From: a phage | Sequence record: PZ386974.1 | DNA length: 64,000 nt | Reading direction: 5' to 3' (one strand) | Shown: in pieces, positions 673 through 48,572 of the stretch | Layout: every line of letters starts with the position of its first letter | Numbering within the stretch: position 1 is the stretch's first letter | Position numbers and translations under genes: made by a program | The notes under the pieces: model-generated | The model's database searches: none | What the model was told of the DNA's origin: nothing | What the model saw: only the letters and a program-made list of their open reading frames with translations

Positions 673-1838
673 TCCGGGTACCTCAAAGCGTCATCAGAGT
701 TAGTTATATCAATAATAGATATAGAGTTTTCTGCTAACCCGTTTTTAGATAATTGACGTTTATAATACCTTTCACAATATGTACACGTTGACCCACAGAT
801 TTCATTAGCACAATCAAAATCTGGATGTCTGAACCACCTTTTTTCTAAAAAGCCATCTAACAAAGAGGTTTCAATATTTACTGTATGTGAAAACTCAGTC
901 TCATTTTCAAGAGTGAAAATAGTCTCTAAAGGCTTCCACAGTTCTAACAAATTACCTTCAAACTTTTCAGAAGCGTATGCTTCAAGAACTTTCAAAATGT
1001 AGTCTGTGCTACCTGTACGTCCTGAAACTTTGAATTGAGTGATACCAATATCATTATAAAGTTTCAAATCTTGAGGACGAACAAAACGAGTTCTCAACCA
1101 ATTAAATGGGTCTGTATCACGAGCTTTAATACAGTGCTGCATTGGATATCCGTTTAAGGATTTAGCATCATCAGCTGTAACATCAGTACTATGGAAAATA
1201 TAGCAAGAGTCACGATAGCTACAATGTGTTGTATACCCTTTACCAGCATTAGAACAGAACTCGTTTACAAGAACTTCAAATATTATATTGTTCTTATTGC
1301 AAAACTCTGCTGCACGCTTCAGGAAAGAAACTGAACGGTTCTTATGAATTCCGCAACAGACCTTTTTGATGTTATATTGGTCATGCAAGTATTTGATTTG
1401 AGTTACAGCATCGACATGTAGAATTGTTGAAACTTCAATCTCAATATCTTTATTGACTTCACGAACAATTTCCATAACAACAGGGTTAGCGATAGTAATA
1501 CGCCATACGCCTATTGACCAAAGATACTGAACATAATCCTGAATAGCTTTCTTCTTCCACTCAACTAGTTCTCTTTTTGAACCAGGATTTATCGTGTTGA
1601 GTGTATAGTTAAAGCAAATACCTAATTCGTTACAACGTTTAACGTAATCTTCTAACATCTTTTTGTCAACGTCAGGAAGCCTAAAATCAGGTCTGGCTGC
1701 TACAAAAGCCATTTCTCTTGTAGAGCCGTATACTTCGTTTATCAAGCTATTAGGATAAGTTTTATTGAGCTCTACGATTTTATCAAGAAGAGCTAAATCA
1801 AAATTCGTTCCGATTTTAAAAGTATTCATTTTTTGCAT
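669..1838 (-). CDS. Cys-rich protein of unknown function (389 aa); candidate transferase or metal-binding enzyme of the sugar-nucleotide cassette
   Basis: Long ORF with many Cys including C-terminal C-x3-C-x2-C (CGSTCTYC); no family assignable by eye. Confidence 0.6.
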   Translation of the reverse strand: MQKMNTFKIGTNFDLALLDKIVELNKTYPNSLINEVYGSTREMAFVAARPDFRLPDVDKKMLEDYVKRCNELGICFNYTLNTINPGSKRELVEWKKKAIQDYVQYLWSIGVWRITIANPVVMEIVREVNKDIEIEVSTILHVDAVTQIKYLHDQYNIKKVCCGIHKNRSVSFLKRAAEFCNKNNIIFEVLVNEFCSNAGKGYTTHCSYRDSCYIFHSTDVTADDAKSLNGYPMQHCIKARDTDPFNWLRTRFVRPQDLKLYNDIGITQFKVSGRTGSTDYILKVLEAYASEKFEGNLLELWKPLETIFTLENETEFSHTVNIETSLLDGFLEKRWFRHPDFDCANEICGSTCTYCERYYKRQLSKNGLAENSISIIDITNSDDALRYPE

Positions 1839-19145: not shown

Positions 19146-19616
19146 TTAATCATGTTTCCACACCCCATCGGTATTTGACCAAAGTCGCTGATTATCTGAT
19201 CCTCGCCACAGCTTTTTAGTCGGAAGATTTTTCTCATACTTCCCATCAATAATAACATCAACATATTTAAGCATTTCTAGTTGTTTAATATCTTCAAACT
19301 TATATCCTGTCCACAACCAAATGCTTTTATTGGGATAAAGATTTTTTACTGTTTGAACAATGCGATGAATAACATCTCGGTTATCAGGATAGAGAGGGTC
19401 TCCTCCGGTTATAGTTAATCCTTCTATATAATCATTATTCAAACATTCAATTAATTGTTCTAGTGTCTCTCCAGTGAATGGAACACCGTTTCTAGCATTC
19501 CATGTTGATTTATTATAACACCCTTCGCATTTATGCAAACAACCTGTGACGAAAAGAACGACCCTGCAACCAGGGCCATTCACAAAATCGCAAGGATAAA
19601 ATCTATCATAATTCAT
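19146..19616 (-). CDS. nrdG: anaerobic ribonucleotide reductase activating protein NrdG (radical SAM)
   Basis: Cys cluster CRVVLFVTGCLHKCEGCYN; 156 aa; adjacent to nrdD. Confidence 0.9.
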   Translation of the reverse strand: MNYDRFYPCDFVNGPGCRVVLFVTGCLHKCEGCYNKSTWNARNGVPFTGETLEQLIECLNNDYIEGLTITGGDPLYPDNRDVIHRIVQTVKNLYPNKSIWLWTGYKFEDIKQLEMLKYVDVIIDGKYEKNLPTKKLWRGSDNQRLWSNTDGVWKHD

Positions 19617-21430
19617 TGGTGTTTAACCCTATGCATGATTTCTTTATTTTTGCCTAGATTAAATCCGCGTTCGTTCGGGTTTCCAAGATAACCACACGTT
19701 CTTCTTATTGTGTTCATCTTTTTAGGATCAGTTTCTCCACAAATAGAACAAACAAATCCGTTTTCAGTAGGAGTCATTTCATGGGTACTTCCACACGTAA
19801 AACATTTATCTACTGGCATATTAACACCAAAATAATCTAAATGTTGTGCAGCATAATCCCAGACAGCCTCAAGTCCCTTTAAATTGTTTTTCATATCTGG
19901 AAGTTCAACATAAGAAATGTGACCACCTGACGCAATGAAATGATATGGCGCTTCACGAGAAATCTTTTCAAACGGAGTAATATTTTCTTCTACTGAAACA
20001 TGGAAACTATTAGTGTACCAGCCTTTATCAGTGACATCCTTTACACTTCCATATTTTTCCGTGTCGAGTTTACAGAAACGATAACACAAGTTTTCAGCAG
20101 GAGTAGAATACAAGCTAAAAGCAAAACCGGTTCTTTCGGTCCACTGTTTAAGATGAGTATTCATTTTAGTTAAAATTTCTTGTCCAATATCACGACCGAC
20201 AAGAATATTCAATTCGTGAATACCAATGTATCCTAGGGACACTGAACTTCTACCGTTTTTAAATAACTCAATTATATCGTCATCAGGTTTAAGACGGACC
20301 CCGAATGCACCTTCTTGGTAAAGAATAGGAGCAACAGTCGCTTTAACCCCTTTTAAGGAACTAATTCTACACATCAAAGCTTCAAAACACAAATCCATTC
20401 GTTCATCGAACAATTCGGCAAATTTCTGTTCATTGAACTGTGTTCCAATATAAGAATCTAATGCGATACGAGGAAGATTCAGTGTTACAACACCGAGATT
20501 ATTACGTCCATCAAGAATTTCATTACCGGTCGAATCTTTCCATACGCTCAAGAAACTACGGCAACCCATTGGAGAAACAGGAACTGAAGAACCGGTAATA
20601 GCTTTATTATTCTTAACCGAAATAATATCAGGATACATTCTTTTGCTTGCGCACTCTAGAGCAAGCTGCTTAATATCATAGTTCGGATCATCTTTATAAA
20701 GATTAACACCTTCTTCAACAAACATAACAAGCTTAGGGAAAATAGGAGTTATTCCATCACGACCAAGACCTTTAATGCGGTTTTTAAGAATTGCCTTCTG
20801 AATCATTCGTTCAGTCCAATCGGTTCCCGTACCAAATGTAATTGTTACAAAAGGCGTTTGTCCGTTTGAACTAAAGAGAGTATTTACTTCATATTCATAA
20901 GCTTGGAATGCGTCATAGACATCTTTTTCTGTTTTGGATTGAGCATAATTCAACGCATCAGCGATTTGCCATTTTTCTGCATCTTCAATATGTTTTGCAT
21001 AGGTGCGTTTAACATAAGGAGAAAGTACTTTATCTACATTAGCAAAAGTCGTTCCGCCATACTGGTGAGAAGCAACTTGTGCGGTAATTTGTGCCATAAT
21101 TGCAGTAGCAACGCCAATAGATTTAGGCGTTTCAATTTGAGCATTGCCTAATTTAAATCCATTCTCAAGCATCCCATTTAAATCGACTAAACAGCAATTA
21201 GTAAATGGAAGAGCAGGAGAATAATCAATATCATGCATGTGAATGATTCCGCTTTCATGCGCATTCATAATAAAAGACGGGACCATATTTTTGGCAATGT
21301 GCTTAGACACAATACCAGCCATAAGGTCCCGTTGAGTTGGAAAAACACGAGAATCTTTATTAGCATTCTCGTTTAAAAGGTCTTTATTAGTTTTATGAAT
21401 TAATCCTTCAATTTCTTTTTCAATTTTCAT
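19613..21430 (-). CDS. nrdD: anaerobic ribonucleoside-triphosphate reductase NrdD (uninterrupted)
   Basis: 605 aa; C-terminal glycyl-radical motif RRTCGYLG and Zn-ribbon CFTCGS...CSICG. Confidence 0.95.
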   Translation of the reverse strand: MKIEKEIEGLIHKTNKDLLNENANKDSRVFPTQRDLMAGIVSKHIAKNMVPSFIMNAHESGIIHMHDIDYSPALPFTNCCLVDLNGMLENGFKLGNAQIETPKSIGVATAIMAQITAQVASHQYGGTTFANVDKVLSPYVKRTYAKHIEDAEKWQIADALNYAQSKTEKDVYDAFQAYEYEVNTLFSSNGQTPFVTITFGTGTDWTERMIQKAILKNRIKGLGRDGITPIFPKLVMFVEEGVNLYKDDPNYDIKQLALECASKRMYPDIISVKNNKAITGSSVPVSPMGCRSFLSVWKDSTGNEILDGRNNLGVVTLNLPRIALDSYIGTQFNEQKFAELFDERMDLCFEALMCRISSLKGVKATVAPILYQEGAFGVRLKPDDDIIELFKNGRSSVSLGYIGIHELNILVGRDIGQEILTKMNTHLKQWTERTGFAFSLYSTPAENLCYRFCKLDTEKYGSVKDVTDKGWYTNSFHVSVEENITPFEKISREAPYHFIASGGHISYVELPDMKNNLKGLEAVWDYAAQHLDYFGVNMPVDKCFTCGSTHEMTPTENGFVCSICGETDPKKMNTIRRTCGYLGNPNERGFNLGKNKEIMHRVKHQ

Positions 21431-35550: not shown

Positions 35551-35849
35551 TACTCTTTGAAAGGAATTAACTTTTTAACTGCTTTAGATACTTCGTCACG
35601 AACCTGATGGAAGTTCTTGAGCTGTTCAAGGCGTTGTTCGTAATACGCAATCTCATCTTCTTCAAGACAATCGTCAGCGTCTTCTTTCAGATATGCCTTG
35701 TACTCATTAAAGAGGGCCCATAGGCGGTTCTCAAAGTCATCAAGGCTTTGAATTTTCTTGTGCTTCGGAACAAGGCCAAAAGGATTGCTTTCAGTTATGC
35801 GTCTAGATGCTTCATAATGAGTTCCAAAGCCTGATAGGATTTGAGCCAT
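35550..35849 (-). CDS. hypothetical protein (99 aa)
   Basis: ORF. Confidence 0.5.
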
Positions 35850-36130
35850 TAGTATTTTTCCTCAGGTCGAAATACCGCACGACATGCCCACATGCTGGCT
35901 TCTTTTAGATGTTGCTTAGCATACTTAAGAGCCTGCACTGCATCCATATCTTCTTTGGTTTGTTGCTCTGTTTCATTTTCTTTCAAGATATATGCTTCTT
36001 CAATCAGAGCATCAAACAACAATCCAAGACGGACTTCTGCATCTTTAATAGCGTTCACTTTACCGATTTTATCATCGGTATGCGGCTTGTAGCCTTTGAT
36101 GTCTTCAATCGACATAAGGAATTTCCTCAT
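35849..36130 (-). CDS. hypothetical protein (start uncertain)
   Basis: ORF-track model (to 36283) overlaps the upstream gene; internal Met starts are more plausible. Confidence 0.4.
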
Positions 36131-36329
36131 CGGTGGCAAGGTCATATTCGACCAATTGGATAGGCTCATTAATACCATATCCACGTACAGTGATATCAGT
36201 TGTCGGATAGTTTCCAGTAATATCACCCATTCTAAATGCTTCAGTGAATGATTGCTCGCCTGAGCAACTAAACCAGGCGGCAAAACATTTTAAAACATCT
36301 TCAGACCCTTCTATAATCAATTTAGCCAT
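36105..36329 (-). CDS. hypothetical protein (74 aa)
   Basis: ORF. Confidence 0.45.
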   Translation of the reverse strand: MAKLIIEGSEDVLKCFAAWFSCSGEQSFTEAFRMGDITGNYPTTDITVRGYGINEPIQLVEYDLATDEEIPYVD

Positions 36330-36691
36330 TATAGACTCTCAGTAAAGGTGCGAGCGATAACGTCACGCTGCTGTTCCGGAGTCAGAGAGTTAAAGCGAAC
36401 TGCATAACCGGATACACGGATGGTCAACTGCGGATATTTTTCTGGATGCTTAACTGCATCTTCCAGAGTTTCACGACGCAGAACATTAACGTTCAGGTGT
36501 TGACCACCTTCAATTTTAACTTTAGGTTGTTGTTCAATTTCAATTTCACGGGCATTCAAACCGTAGAAAATTTCCGGGTCTACAATAGCGTCTTCTTTAA
36601 AAGTCTTAGAGACAATAATCCTGGCTTGAGTACCGTCTTCAAAATAAATAGTGCCTTTGTGTGTGCCTTCAAGAATTTGATATGCTTTCAT
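36329..36691 (-). CDS. autonomous glycyl-radical cofactor (GrcA/YfiD-like; T4 Y06I-type)
   Basis: C-terminal ~65 aa [59 protein letters not shown] carries the RVSGY glycyl-radical motif and matches my recollection of E. coli GrcA; the N-terminal 55 aa are unrelated. Confidence 0.85.
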
Positions 36692-36697
36692 ATAACC

Positions 36698-37006
36698 TCA
36701 ATTAGAAAATAAATTTATCCAAGTTTTTTCTTTAATCAAAAATGGGTCGGAATTAAACGCCATTAAACTTTGAGTGATTAATCCCTTAAATGGCCCATCA
36801 ATAAATTCCATTTTGAAATGTGGAATACTAGTCATTAACCGTGCATTAGGAGCAGTACAAAAAACCTGCTGCCCTGCGAACGGACCTTTAGTCAAACGGT
36901 ATCGTTTAGGTTTAAAATGGTAAATCTCGTAATTTTCTACAAGGGCCCTTTTATTGCATACTGGGCTGTTATAACAATGCTCAAAAACTTCAATAGTGGT
37001 CATCAT
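36698..37006 (-). CDS. hypothetical protein (start likely internal, ~102 aa)
   Basis: ORF; the track start overlaps the upstream gene by 67 nt. Confidence 0.45.
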   Translation of the reverse strand: MMTTIEVFEHCYNSPVCNKRALVENYEIYHFKPKRYRLTKGPFAGQQVFCTAPNARLMTSIPHFKMEFIDGPFKGLITQSLMAFNSDPFLIKEKTWINLFSN

Positions 37007-37542: not shown

Positions 37543-37715
37543 TTAGTTTCTCTTAAGGTTGGGGCCGTTCCGTGGCACATGTTAGGTCCTTCGACTCGCT
37601 ATGTAAACCCATTACCGCACTTGGGCTCGACCTTATTACAGGTTGGAAAAGGTACATCACTCAGAGGACTCGACGTTCATGAGGAGAGGTTGCGTTTCCC
37701 TTTATTAGGCAAGAA

Positions 37716-38045
37716 TTATACTCTAGGCTTTTGAGCTTGTTTGGTATTGGATTCCCATGCAGCTTTGGTAATTTTGTTAGCGGCATAACCAAAGGCATTA
37801 GATAGAACACCTTTAGAGTTGAATACATCCAATCCAATAAGTACACCGGCTGTGTTAAATTTAGGAGCAAAGTACGCATTAGTTTTAGAAAGAGCTTTTT
37901 TCAATTCAGGGTCTTGAACCAAACCATCAAAAACGCCTTTACTATTTACTTTATATGTTACTTTGGGATTTTTACCTTCTTCGATAGCAGCTTTCTGTTC
38001 CGCAGATAATGTAACTTCAGTGATAAACTCTTGATACGTTTTCAT
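37716..38045 (-). CDS. internal protein (IP) candidate with capsid-targeting sequence
   Basis: N-terminus MKTYQEFITE matches the T4 IP capsid-targeting consensus MKTYQEFIAE. Confidence 0.65.
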   Translation of the reverse strand: MKTYQEFITEVTLSAEQKAAIEEGKNPKVTYKVNSKGVFDGLVQDPELKKALSKTNAYFAPKFNTAGVLIGLDVFNSKGVLSNAFGYAANKITKAAWESNTKQAQKPRV

Positions 38046-38070: not shown

Positions 38071-38385
38071 TTATTCTTTAGGGAAGTTTTTAGAGTATGC
38101 ATCATAAAGTTTATTACCGATGCGACGGAAGACTTTAGCTGCAAAACGGTTTTCAGGGTTTTTAATCATGATTTGCATCATGTAAGTTCCTGCATCCGAA
38201 AGAGCTTCTTCATAGTACCCATTAATTTCTTTAAGGGTCCTACGTTTACCACCAGGACCATCAACAGTAATTTTCCATTTACCTGTAGAAGTGCGGCTCG
38301 GTGGCTCAACTTGTTCAATCCAAATATAACCACCTTCAACGCGTTGGTTGGCGGATTCTGCAATAAATTCTTTATACGTTTTCAT
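38071..38385 (-). CDS. internal protein (IP) candidate with capsid-targeting sequence
   Basis: N-terminus MKTYKEFIAE. Confidence 0.65.
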   Translation of the reverse strand: MKTYKEFIAESANQRVEGGYIWIEQVEPPSRTSTGKWKITVDGPGGKRRTLKEINGYYEEALSDAGTYMMQIMIKNPENRFAAKVFRRIGNKLYDAYSKNFPKE

Positions 38386-38449: not shown

Positions 38450-38710
38450 TTAAGCTTTACCGCCAGAAATAATTCCGAAGTTGTTAAAATCGTATCCAAT
38501 ATCGTCAACATCTACTTTAGGGCTTGCTACAACATAAGCAATTTCACTACGTTTTGCATAGGTGTTGATTTCTTTACCATCGCCACCTAAGAAAGAATAC
38601 CCATTACGCTTTAATGAGCCAAAGTCTTCCGCATCACCAATGAAAGCTTTAACTTTAAATTTAGGACCTTTGGCATCTGCTTCAATGATAAATTCTTGAT
38701 ACATTTTCAT
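38450..38710 (-). CDS. internal protein (IP) candidate with capsid-targeting sequence
   Basis: N-terminus MKMYQEFIIE. Confidence 0.65.
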   Translation of the reverse strand: MKMYQEFIIEADAKGPKFKVKAFIGDAEDFGSLKRNGYSFLGGDGKEINTYAKRSEIAYVVASPKVDVDDIGYDFNNFGIISGGKA

Positions 38711-48415: not shown

Positions 48416-48492
48416 TGGTCGAGACAGAAGGATTCTAACCTTCAACCTACGGATTAGAAGTCCGTTGCTCGATACAATTGAGCTATGCCTCG
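48416..48492 (-). tRNA. tRNA-Arg (anticodon UCU), CCA encoded
   Basis: Manually folded cloverleaf: 7-bp acceptor stem (one G-U), D-stem GCTC/GAGC, anticodon stem ACGGA/TCCGT with loop CTTCTAA, T-stem GAAGG/CCTTC, discriminator A + CCA. Confidence 0.8.
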
Positions 48493-48498
48493 AATATA

Positions 48499-48572
48499 TG
48501 ACCCAGACCAGATTCGAACTGGTAACCTTTCCCTTATGAGGGGACTGCTGCTAACCATTGAGCTACAGGGCC
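48499..48572 (-). tRNA. tRNA with CAU anticodon (Met or lysidine-type Ile)
   Basis: T-arm ACCAG-TTCGAAT-CTGGT, anticodon loop CTCATAA with U33/A37, acceptor stem with one mismatch; CCA not encoded. Confidence 0.6.

Follow-up and report, generated by a model that had tools for sequence, protein, structure and literature searches.

A Mosigvirus ortholog of T4 vs.6 with a 3′ tract of the Escherichia coli grcA type

The gene at positions 36329..36691 of the window (the entire 64,000-nucleotide stretch of phage DNA that we analyzed; sequence record PZ386974.1) is best explained as a Mosigvirus gene orthologous to T4 vs.6 (Y06I), encoding a GrcA-type spare part for pyruvate formate-lyase (PFL), with a 3′ tract that was converted to the E. 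coli sequence; we put the probability of this reading at roughly 85%. As such, vs.6 is an ordinary conserved auxiliary metabolic gene of T-even phages, near-identical deposited copies of which often already carry the name GrcA, and both the gene and its function must be regarded as already known because T4 Y06I was shown in 2001, according to the account given in PMC8683613, to restore oxygen-cleaved PFL. Less ordinary is that the 3′ half appears to have been overwritten by the grcA sequence of the E. coli host itself. The two halves of this small gene differ greatly in apparent age (dS 0.05–0.2 in the 3′ half versus saturation in the 5′ half), and vs.6 would thus represent an unusually clean natural case of host-to-phage gene conversion inside one small gene.

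The vs.6 gene and its family

The open reading frame is real, encodes 120 amino acids and has exactly the sequence that had been quoted in a preliminary description of this DNA. It is read from the minus strand, from an ATG start codon at 36691 to a TAA stop codon at 36331..36329, and comprises the following parts:

36329..36691, minus strand: vs.6 (Y06I) ortholog, predicted GrcA-type PFL spare part of 120 amino acids (open reading frame, phage homologs, phrog_1209, PDB 6OWR)
36514..36691, minus strand: phage-lineage 5′ half, codons 1–60, AT-rich, probable diverged GrcA N-half (hhalign, composition)
36339..36513, minus strand: putative host-derived tract, gene nucleotides 179 to ~353, encoding the structured radical domain (alignments to E. 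coli grcA)
36404..36418, minus strand: RVSGY glycyl-radical motif, amino acids 92–96 (sequence reading, alignment to PFL and YfiD)
36329..36338, minus strand: phage-type 3′ end, GAGAGTCTATAA (same as in phage Matisse, unlike E. coli)
36696..36699, minus strand: GAGG, predicted Shine-Dalgarno sequence of vs.6 (sequence reading)

The neighborhood is a phage gene cluster with abutting or overlapping adjacent reading frames: the predicted Shine-Dalgarno sequence of vs.6 overlaps the stop codon of vs.7 (TGA at 36698..36700), while its phage-type 3′ end holds both a GAG Shine-Dalgarno sequence and a TAATG stop/start overlap serving the downstream vs.5 gene, whose reading frame starts at 36329. Phages Matisse and Miller have a ribosome-binding site annotated at the matching place, the 3′ end of vs.6, and the last 12 nucleotides of vs.6 are those of the unconverted copy of Slopekvirus Matisse, whereas E. 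coli differs (GAAAGCCTGTAA). Further along the cluster, upstream of vs.8, lies an unannotated element of ~41 nucleotides (37606..37648). It found no match in Rfam gathering and E-value scans or in E. coli, and folding of the single sequence produced no signal (z = +2.2 for the minus strand and +1.05 for the plus strand), but the element is conserved and covarying.

The vs.6 protein is identical to T4 Vs.6 (NP_049730) in 114 of 120 amino acids over its full length. T4 had been said to carry a comparable protein; this protein indeed exists, and it is more than comparable, being the direct ortholog vs.6/Y06I. It has the same length, its gene lies likewise between vs.7 and vs.5, and it possesses the same mosaic junction and an E. 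coli-like tract; it differs by six substitutions in the N-half and by H73, where the protein studied here and E. coli GrcA both have an arginine. The surrounding region is collinear with that of T4 (76% identity), and the order vs.8-vs.7-vs.6-vs.5-vs.4-vs.3-regB-vs.1 is common to T4 and Mosigvirus Shf125875. Judged from its sequence, the source phage is an RB69-like Mosigvirus carrying the ortholog of T4 vs.6. The gene is present in ~1,600 phage records; a megablast search with vs.6 retrieved 649 phage records (top match 99.2%), 642 of them at a coverage of at least 80%.

Matches to profiles and to proteins of known structure consistently place the protein in the GrcA/YfiD family. Positions 1–121 of phrog_1209 match amino acids 1–120 (E 6.4e-63), Pfam Gly_radical (PF01228) matches amino acids 59–101 (E 1.9e-18), residues 27–127 of YfiD (PDB 6OWR) can be aligned with an E-value of 1.6e-42, and PFL residues 697–759 match amino acids 58–120 (E 5e-26). 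The agreement of the Gly_radical, 6OWR and PFL matches bears out the earlier proposal of a GrcA-type spare part, and the RVSGY motif named along with it is present. Its radical glycine is G95 (codon 36407..36409), the counterpart of GrcA G102 and PflB G734. Vs.6 displays the traits of the family (TIGR04365; IPR011140), namely a small stand-alone protein, an RVSGY radical domain and a homologous N-half, the reference being a protein of ~14 kDa and ~127 amino acids that stands alone rather than forming part of a complete glycyl radical enzyme. TIGR04365, the model for bacterial GrcA equivalogs, aligns amino acids 18–120 with profile positions 23–126 (E 7e-47), but the score of 158.8 bits stays below the equivalog cut-off of 170 bits; we have therefore filed vs.6 under the phage GrcA homologs of the vs.6/Y06I group instead of among the bacterial equivalogs. 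By analogy, this group would work like GrcA.

A catalytic glycyl radical enzyme such as PflB or TdcE, defined by a barrel of ~760 amino acids with Cys418/Cys419, can be ruled out as the identity of this protein, in which just the last ~63 PFL residues are present. Since only the PFL C-terminus is represented, the labels "pyruvate formate-lyase", "acetyltransferase" and "ribonucleotide reductase subunit" used in GenBank are misnomers. GenBank names also include "hypothetical", the family is entered in PHROGs under "unknown function", and both T4 NP_049730 and Shf125875 gp115 are annotated as GrcA/vs.6 (RefSeq names them GrcA). The annotation of the family is hence inconsistent, and a firm assignment is useful for curation.

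Two halves of different age

From the sequence EGGQHLN onward, the last 60 amino acids of the vs.6 protein are identical to residues 68–127 of E. coli GrcA at every position (60/60); the host-identical C-terminus noted before is thus confirmed, but it spans 60 and not ~65 amino acids. At the nucleotide level, the last 183 nucleotides (36329..36511) share 95.6% identity with E. coli grcA (dS 0.20, dN 0), while the 5′ part is only ~51% identical, a heterogeneity that is highly significant (Fisher p = 1.2e-22). The T4 tract is nearer to E. coli grcA (98.4%) and reaches closer to the stop codon. The 3′ segment also stands out in its composition: its GC content is 0.470, as compared with 0.35 in the 5′ half (GC3 0.27) and 0.373 in the window, placing it in the top 0.55% of 183-nucleotide windows (z = 2.7), a level also reached by ten other patches in the window. 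The GC-rich 3′ part pointed out in the preliminary description is therefore borne out, and a low identity to enterobacterial grcA together with a flat GC profile was clearly not found.

Among 82 bacterial grcA genes, that of E. coli is nearest to the vs.6 tract; in a comparison of 80 bacterial loci, another Escherichia species reached 94.5% identity and other genera at most 88.5% (K. aerogenes NCTC10006, whose gene is frameshifted, was left out of the grcA comparisons). These data support an enterobacterial donor, specifically one from the genus Escherichia. The identity peaks at 95.7% in every one of 5,426 E. coli genomes; given this uniform ceiling, the eight tract differences can be assigned to the phage lineage. 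Upstream of the terminal ~10 nucleotides, which are of the phage type, four of the five differences relative to E. coli replace GC by AT. Within 25 kb around vs.6, the 3′ tract was the sole stretch matched by megablast to any of the 5,426 E. coli genomes, and five E. coli records listed at "95–99%" are tract-only alignments, an effect of alignment length and not phage DNA within these genomes. We also considered pflB as donor and rejected it: in the comparison made with the copy of the Klebsiella phage KP182, the 3′ segment is ~81% identical to pflB versus 93.6% to K. pneumoniae grcA, so that the phage tract derives at the nucleotide level from grcA.

The N-terminal 55 amino acids had been described as unrelated to GrcA, a view that cannot be upheld. 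When only the N-halves of 10 phage and 76 bacterial sequences were compared by hhalign, phage residues 2–60 aligned end to end with GrcA residues 3–67 (probability 95.7%, E 9.8e-9, 31% identity), and a tblastn search with the N-half alone found 15 bacterial grcA genes, each at the collinear position. On the strength of this profile comparison we regard the N-half of vs.6 as an old, diverged GrcA N-half; N-termini of an intermediate type are present in IMG/VR contigs. Relative to E. coli GrcA (YfiD, P68066; NMR structure 6OWR), which has the same architecture of N-half and radical domain, it is ~31–35% identical and 7 amino acids shorter. A protein homolog search with the N-terminal 60 amino acids returned only five near-identical fragments, which gave no information on other contexts. 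The 5′ half of vs.6 is 90% identical to that of T4 and 72% to that of KP182; a blastn search with it gave no match in the 5,426 E. coli genomes, which rules out an E. coli bacterial or prophage source. The N-half is under purifying selection (dN/dS among phages 0.09–0.15).

Taken by sequence, the whole of vs.6 is therefore homologous to grcA, and an old phage homolog would have had an internal tract of ~175 nucleotides swapped for the host allele. Both tract ends fall inside coding sequence that was already homologous: on the left at codon 60/61, and on the right within 36339..36351, with the last ~10 nucleotides still of the phage type. From the composition and the phylogenetic fit we infer that the exchange took place by homologous recombination in the direction from host to phage. 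The capture from an enterobacterial host that had been suggested earlier thus survives as far as the Escherichia-type tract is concerned; it does not amount to the fusion of a piece of host DNA with a phage reading frame unrelated to it.

Host tracking across phages and competing explanations

The type of tract follows the host, as shown by the Klebsiella Jiaodaviruses: they have the phage 5′ half in common with vs.6 but carry a Klebsiella-type 3′ tract, with the left junction at codon 60/61 in both phage groups. At 21 sites separating E. coli from K. pneumoniae grcA, T4 and the gene studied here have the E. coli state throughout (21/21), whereas the Klebsiella phages KP182 and PSE-D1 have 16–17 Klebsiella states versus 2 E. 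coli states. The dS values of the 3′ segment between phage and own host are correspondingly low (T4-E. coli, 0.046; window-E. coli, 0.20; PSE-D1-K. pneumoniae, 0.19) when set against those for window-K. pneumoniae (1.08) and E. coli-K. pneumoniae (0.56). Copies from Karamvirus, Slopekvirus, Pseudotevenvirus, Krischvirus, Biquartavirus, T5-like and Priunavirus phages showed no host-like tract when compared with the 82 bacterial genes; these other genera have 71–84% identity to any bacterial grcA, mixed states and no GC jump.

The same backbone with a Klebsiella-type tract in Jiaodaviruses implies at least two host-matched replacements, and the data hence indicate that host-to-phage gene conversion in vs.6 occurred independently at least twice. 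The Tequatrovirus and Mosigvirus tracts may go back to one common conversion that spread through phage-phage recombination, and "recurrent" therefore refers to two host types only. We consider it somewhat more probable than not that the grcA allele of the current host genus took the place of the radical-domain half time and again, while the N-terminal adaptor half was never replaced. No description of such repeated overwriting was found in the searchable literature.

Could the mosaic have arisen without any older phage homolog of GrcA? YfiD has an N-half that is disordered and under weaker constraint (PMC8683613), and grcA diverges somewhat faster in its 5′ half within bacteria too (E. coli and K. 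pneumoniae are 84% identical there, as compared with 88.5% in the 3′ half), so that some excess divergence of a captured N-half would be in keeping with this idea. It is nevertheless very improbable, and effectively refuted, given a saturated 5′ half (~51% nucleotide identity) beside a 3′ tract with a dS of 0.05–0.20, a single phage-type 5′ half across genera whose 3′ halves fit different hosts or none, and a dN/dS of ~0.1 among phages that does not speak for a free-running sequence; moreover, a search for full-length host-like captures with E. coli grcA found none among 1,511 phage records that covers >60% of the gene. The opposite idea, that no transfer occurred and that extreme constraint or convergent codon usage produced the near-identity of the 3′ halves, can draw on the C-terminal 60 amino acids, which are nearly invariant in all phages and bacteria compared. 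Protein constraint, however, leaves synonymous sites unfixed: Slopekvirus, Pseudotevenvirus and Krischvirus encode the same amino acid sequence with only 76–84% nucleotide identity to E. coli grcA, and the segregation of synonymous host states with host genus at the informative sites (21/21) refutes this idea, to which we assign next to no likelihood. Chimeric assembly of host grcA reads with phage sequence, finally, would account for the abrupt change in composition and for nothing else; we give it no credence at all, since this junction recurs in IMG/VR contigs and in 642 phage genomes that were sequenced independently (at least 80% coverage), and since none of the 5,426 E. coli genomes has the phage-lineage substitutions of the tract.

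Two further alternatives concern what the protein does. A role in nucleotide metabolism has been suggested through the Gly_radical domain (Nolan et al., 2006; PMC1524935), and vs.6 might accordingly provide a spare radical domain for the phage NrdD rather than for host PFL; it is kept in all six T4-like genomes compared, T4 and five others (PMC1524935), and NrdD and NrdG are encoded in the same window (19146..21430). We judge this highly unlikely: vs.6 and the NrdD of the window have no detectable similarity (BLASTP E = 6.3), the radical motif of NrdD is RTCGY in another context, the match to GrcA is 100% over the last 60 amino acids with PFL residues 697–759 aligned, and T4 Y06I, by the account in PMC8683613, reconstitutes PFL in vitro. 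The protein could also be a host-takeover decoy that sequesters PflA or occupies PflB and so redirects or throttles fermentation, with the phage-specific N-half supplying the altered behavior. It is indeed the phage-conserved N-half that differs, the part that governs binding and activation in YfiD (PMC8683613), and a mimic would require just such a radical domain, one that agrees exactly with that of the current host. Yet a repair part needs an equally exact match, inhibition is without evidence, and, as PMC8683613 reports of the work by Wagner et al. (2001), PFL regained its activity in vitro with T4 Y06I, so that we regard a decoy as unlikely.

Proposed function and comparison with known systems

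We thus favor a spare part for host PFL, a function transferred by analogy from the 95%-identical ortholog. Both YfiD and T4 Y06I, once activated by PFL-AE, restore oxygen-cleaved PFL (Wagner et al., 2001, as described in PMC8683613). Residues 1–60 of YfiD are required both for the binding of cleaved PFL and for activation (PMC8683613), and the radical passes from G102, the named radical site, to C419 (PMC12338860). By extension from the T4 ortholog and E. coli YfiD, for which the mechanism has been shown, G95 of the vs.6 protein would receive its glycyl radical from host PflA (a radical-SAM activase), and the C-terminal domain of the vs.6 protein would then dock into a PflB that had lost its own radical domain through the oxygen cut at G734. 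The domain replaced would be the C-terminal radical domain of PflB (residues 697–759; PDB 1H16, 2PFL); the 690-amino-acid catalytic barrel of PflB and its Cys418/419 pair have no equivalent in vs.6.

T-even phages presumably shut off host gene expression, and damaged PflB and GrcA would therefore not be replaceable during infection. A phage copy might then keep the supply of fermentative ATP and formate going under microaerobic conditions. Class III ribonucleotide reductase uses formate as its reductant, which would provide a possible link to the NrdD and NrdG proteins encoded in the window.

Should repeated overwriting be true, homologous gene conversion between virulent T-even phages and the host chromosome would take place in nature, and there would be selection for an exact match of the spare part to host PflB/PflA. 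The two residues specific for E. coli or Klebsiella hosts, E/L and K/E in ETL-E/L-DAV-K/E-H (E77 and K81 in phage numbering), would then be candidate specificity contacts. The mosaic hence offers a testable hypothesis on how far the GrcA-PflB/PflA interaction is specific for the host, and on the reason why the N-half stays phage-specific.

E. coli grcA itself resides at the ung-grcA locus, which is not the location of vs.6. A close parallel to the mosaic is cyanophage psbA, for which intragenic recombination between host and phage has reportedly been described (Zeidner et al., 2005; Sullivan et al., 2006). This is likewise an auxiliary metabolic gene that forms a patchwork of phage-lineage and host-derived segments, although gene, host group and phage family are all different. 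Unlike psbA, the patch exchanged in vs.6 corresponds to a whole structural domain, and its type agrees with the genus of the host in each of two phage groups.

The vs.6 gene, its family and the activity of its product

The reading frame under study is the vs.6 (Y06I) ortholog of RB69-like Mosigvirus phages, and its translation matches exactly the protein sequence quoted in the preliminary description.

Features of the vs.6 gene
36329..36691, minus strand: vs.6 open reading frame, 120 amino acids; ATG at 36691, TAA at 36331..36329
amino acids 92-96 of the protein, minus strand: RVSGY motif, read from the sequence
36407..36409, minus strand: codon of the radical glycine G95, within RVSGY

A predicted GAGG Shine-Dalgarno sequence lies 4 nt before the vs.6 ATG and shares bases with the stop codon of the preceding reading frame; the vs.6 stop codon in turn overlaps the ATG of the next one (TAATG). 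A Pfam search placed a Gly_radical domain at amino acids 59-101 (E = 1.9e-18), and the RVSGY glycyl-radical motif that had been noticed beforehand is indeed located within it.

Megablast detected vs.6 in 649 GenBank phage records (coverage of at least 80% in 642), with the Escherichia phages TH12 and HY126 as the best matches (99.2%). Homologs were found by tblastn in 1,592 phage records, including those of T4-like phages of Klebsiella, Salmonella, Enterobacter, Cronobacter, Citrobacter, and Aeromonas as well as those of T5-like phages. The local gene order (vs.8, vs.7, vs.6, vs.5, vs.4, vs.3, regB, vs.1) is the same in the window and in Shigella phage Shf125875 (Mosigvirus, RB69-like), and that around vs.6 in T4 is identical to it. 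T4 Vs.6 (NP_049730), annotated as "autonomous glycyl radical cofactor GrcA", shares 114/120 residues with the window protein, so that the earlier statement that T4 carries a comparable protein is borne out. The gene is one of eleven T4 reading frames of unknown function that were kept across all compared T4-like genomes (Nolan et al., 2006; PMC1524935). The window protein matches phrog_1209 end to end, a family still listed as "unknown function" in PHROGs v4 despite the characterization of the T4 protein in 2001. Labels of vs.6 homologs in public records range from pyruvate formate-lyase, 2-ketobutyrate formate-lyase, acetyltransferase, and ribonucleotide reductase subunit to hypothetical protein and GrcA. 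Both vs.6 with its family and the biochemical activity of the product were known before, and near-identical sequences, often named GrcA, have been deposited.

Escherichia coli YfiD (GrcA) and T4 Y06I are "spare part" proteins of about 14 kDa; pyruvate formate-lyase (PFL) activase installs the glycyl radical, and the spare part then binds oxygen-cleaved PFL, whose activity is restored (Wagner et al., 2001, as summarized in PMC8683613). No other spare part has been validated to date. In YfiD, residues 1-60 are disordered but required for binding of cleaved PFL and for efficient activation, and the structured radical domain comprises residues 61-127 (PMC8683613). The G102 radical of GrcA abstracts the hydrogen of PflB C419 (PMC12338860). 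The equivalent of G102 in the window protein is G95; amino acids 21-120 align with YfiD (PDB 6OWR), and the protein also aligns with PFL residues 697-759. By analogy, the best explanation is that the phage protein would follow the known GrcA mechanism, acting on host PflB with the aid of the host activase PflA. As T-even infection halts host gene expression, the phage would thereby replenish the part that is consumed in a key enzyme of fermentation, presumably to its benefit. A role of the protein as a decoy or inhibitor is improbable and conflicts with the reported in vitro rescue.

PFL yields formate, the reductant of class III ribonucleotide reductase, which may link the rescue of PFL to the NrdD and NrdG proteins of the phage. 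These constitute a second glycyl-radical system in the window phage, unrelated to vs.6, that uses this PFL product.

Class III ribonucleotide reductase genes
19146..19616, minus strand: NrdG, 156 amino acids, CxxxCxxC radical-SAM activase
19613..21430, minus strand: NrdD, 605 amino acids, PF13597, RTCGY radical motif

A direct function of the vs.6 product as a spare part for NrdD is unsupported, because the two proteins lack sequence similarity.

A mosaic of phage-type and host-like sequence

A three-way nucleotide alignment of window vs.6, T4 vs.6 and E. coli grcA revealed a sharp switch at nucleotide 179 of the gene. Before this point, aligned codons of the phage genes and E. coli grcA show about 51% nucleotide identity; from there on, 175/183 nucleotides of the window phage and 180/183 of T4 are identical to E. 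coli grcA (5'/3' contrast: Fisher's exact test, p = 1.2e-22). The preliminary description had proposed a GC-rich 3' part encoding about 65 C-terminal residues essentially identical to E. coli GrcA. Both the nucleotide alignment and the GC content (tract, 0.470; 5' half, 0.35; whole window, 0.373; z = 2.7) agree with this proposal, and the protein identity is complete, but it extends over 60 residues (60/60). The tract is the only megablast match to E. coli within 25 kb around vs.6. The similarity stops at the stop codon; the last ~10 nt of the gene (GAGAGTCTATAA), where the Shine-Dalgarno sequence of vs.5 and its start overlap are located, are phage-type and the same as in an unconverted Slopekvirus.

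When the tract was compared with grcA of E. coli and of 80 other Enterobacterales and Pasteurellales species, E. coli was closest (95.6%), followed by another Escherichia species (94.5%) and Citrobacter (88.5%), with all others at 88% or below. A match is present in 5,426/5,426 complete E. coli genomes, the closest at 95.7%, which places the origin of the eight tract differences in the phage lineage. With the phage-type 3' end set aside, four of the five differences from E. coli are GC to AT changes. The dS from E. coli grcA is 0.20 for the window phage and 0.046 for T4, compared with 0.56 between E. coli and K. pneumoniae.

The N-terminal 55 residues, originally considered unrelated to GrcA, are in fact homologous to it. 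The TIGR04365 GrcA model covers amino acids 18-120 of the window protein, and its N-terminal 60 residues alone match the collinear N-terminal half of 15 bacterial GrcA proteins (28-38% identity). A profile-profile comparison restricted to the N-terminal halves of 10 phage and 76 bacterial sequences aligned phage residues 2-60 to 3-67 with a probability of 95.7% (E = 9.8e-9), and intermediate N-terminal forms occur in IMG/VR contigs (e.g., ...SIWLIEDNKARCLVAKEVKEDTVIP...YEYREVEIQNQPTVKV). No E. coli genome contains a nucleotide match to the 5' half, which is kept among phages under purifying selection (dN/dS 0.09-0.15). Several IMG/VR "viral" contigs (L123, L165..L173), which encode either a whole grcA of bacterial type (Yersinia-like, 91%) or a pflB 3' end, resemble pieces of bacterial chromosome or prophage flanks more than carriers of phage genes.

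Host tracking by the radical-domain tract

Flanking DNA of T4 and the window phage is about 76% identical, while the local identity maximum coincides with vs.6 (87-98%) and is highest in the host tract. The tract thus postdates the split between T4 and Mosigvirus; it was either gained separately by the two lineages or passed between them through phage-phage recombination.

In the 183-nt 3' segment, 21 sites separate E. coli grcA from that of K. pneumoniae (taken from a chromosome mis-filed among plasmid records), two of which change amino acids (ETLEDAVKH in E. coli, ETLLDAVEH in Klebsiella). All 21 sites match E. coli in T4 and in the window phage; in the Klebsiella Jiaodaviruses KP182 and PSE-D1, 16-17 match Klebsiella and two match E. 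coli.

Nucleotide identity in the 3' segment
T4 vs. E. coli: 98%
window vs. E. coli: 96%
PSE-D1 vs. K. pneumoniae: 95%
KP182 vs. K. pneumoniae: 91%
E. coli vs. K. pneumoniae: 89%
T4 vs. KP182: 83%

The 5' halves of Jiaodavirus and window-phage vs.6, equal in length and 72% identical, are clearly one phage-type sequence, and the left junction lies at codon 60/61 in both. Between KP182 and PSE-D1 (gene at 1201..1563), identity drops from 97.8% in the 5' half to 94.5% in the 3' half; this greater divergence of the 3' half, together with the closer similarity of PSE-D1 to K. pneumoniae grcA, hints at more than one conversion event within Jiaodavirus. Seven other phage genera show no GC jump in vs.6 and a mixture of states at the informative sites; their 3' halves reach only 71-84% identity to any bacterial grcA.

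These comparisons point to an old phage grcA homolog in which, on at least two occasions, the host allele took the place of the radical-domain tract. Recent capture of the whole gene is excluded, given a 5' half only ~51% identical to E. coli grcA and the absence of a full-length host-like grcA from any phage. Pure selective constraint is likewise excluded as the cause of the 3' near-identity, as is an assembly artefact as the cause of the mosaic. Both ends of each replaced tract fall in previously homologous sequence, as homologous gene conversion predicts and illegitimate fusion does not. In the literature, which we covered incompletely, we found no description of the nucleotide-level mosaic or host tracking of vs.6. 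Recombination between host and phage within auxiliary metabolic genes is a known phenomenon, as in cyanophage psbA.

A conserved element upstream of vs.8 and other genes of the window

37543..37715, minus strand: GC-rich gap upstream of vs.8, 173 nt, unannotated
37606..37648, minus strand: ~41-nt core of the gap element, cc-A-ACCU-GUAAUA-AGGU-CGA-GCC-CAAGUGC-GGU-AAU-gg

The gap is 88% identical in Klebsiella T4-like phages, compared with ~72% for the flanking genes. Its core is almost invariant across ~1,050 phage records from several families (Straboviridae (T4-likes), rV5-like Vequintavirinae, N4-like phage Pylas, a 45-kb phage, and Campylobacter phages) and is nearly always unannotated. In T4 (NC_000866, 5794..5913, corresponding to about 37543..37660 of the window), an annotated 40-residue N-terminal extension of vs.8 (MRDSRQPVIRSSPSAVMGKYRNGQFMCHGMAQTYRAYREE) overlaps the element. 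Since the conserved pieces occupy three different reading frames in the window, their conservation is not at the protein level; as window vs.8 moreover begins at an internal Met, the T4 extension is probably a mis-annotation.

For 28 distinct copies of the core, RNAalifold predicted two small hairpins enclosed by a closing helix. The invariance of the inner hairpins is partly imposed by the search pattern, which leaves the closing helix unconstrained. Closing-helix pairs covary and none is broken (CG 22/GC 6; CG 17/GC 6/UA 2/AU 2/GU 1). Paired cells amount to 96.8%, compared with 85.7% in shuffles (observed value reached in 0/500), and the covariation score is 0.272 compared with 0.071 in shuffles and at most 0.074 in slid controls. 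The element has no match in Rfam 15 (E up to 5) or E. coli and may represent a small structured RNA, or a DNA site, not described before.

Two genes downstream of vs.6, the vs.4 ortholog (35849..36115, minus strand) matches Pfam Acb2_Tad1_hairpin (PF24729; E = 4e-18), by which it is predicted to be the anti-CBASS cyclic-nucleotide sponge Acb2. Three consecutive small reading frames (37716..38045, 38071..38385, and 38450..38710, minus strand) start with MKTYQEFI(T/A)E or MKMYQEFIIE, which resembles the capsid-targeting leader of T4 internal proteins; in Shf125875, the annotation of their counterparts is internal head or virion protein. The T4 tRNA cluster comprises eight genes; the window has two only, for tRNA-Arg(UCU) and tRNA-Met(CAU) (48416..48572, minus strand).
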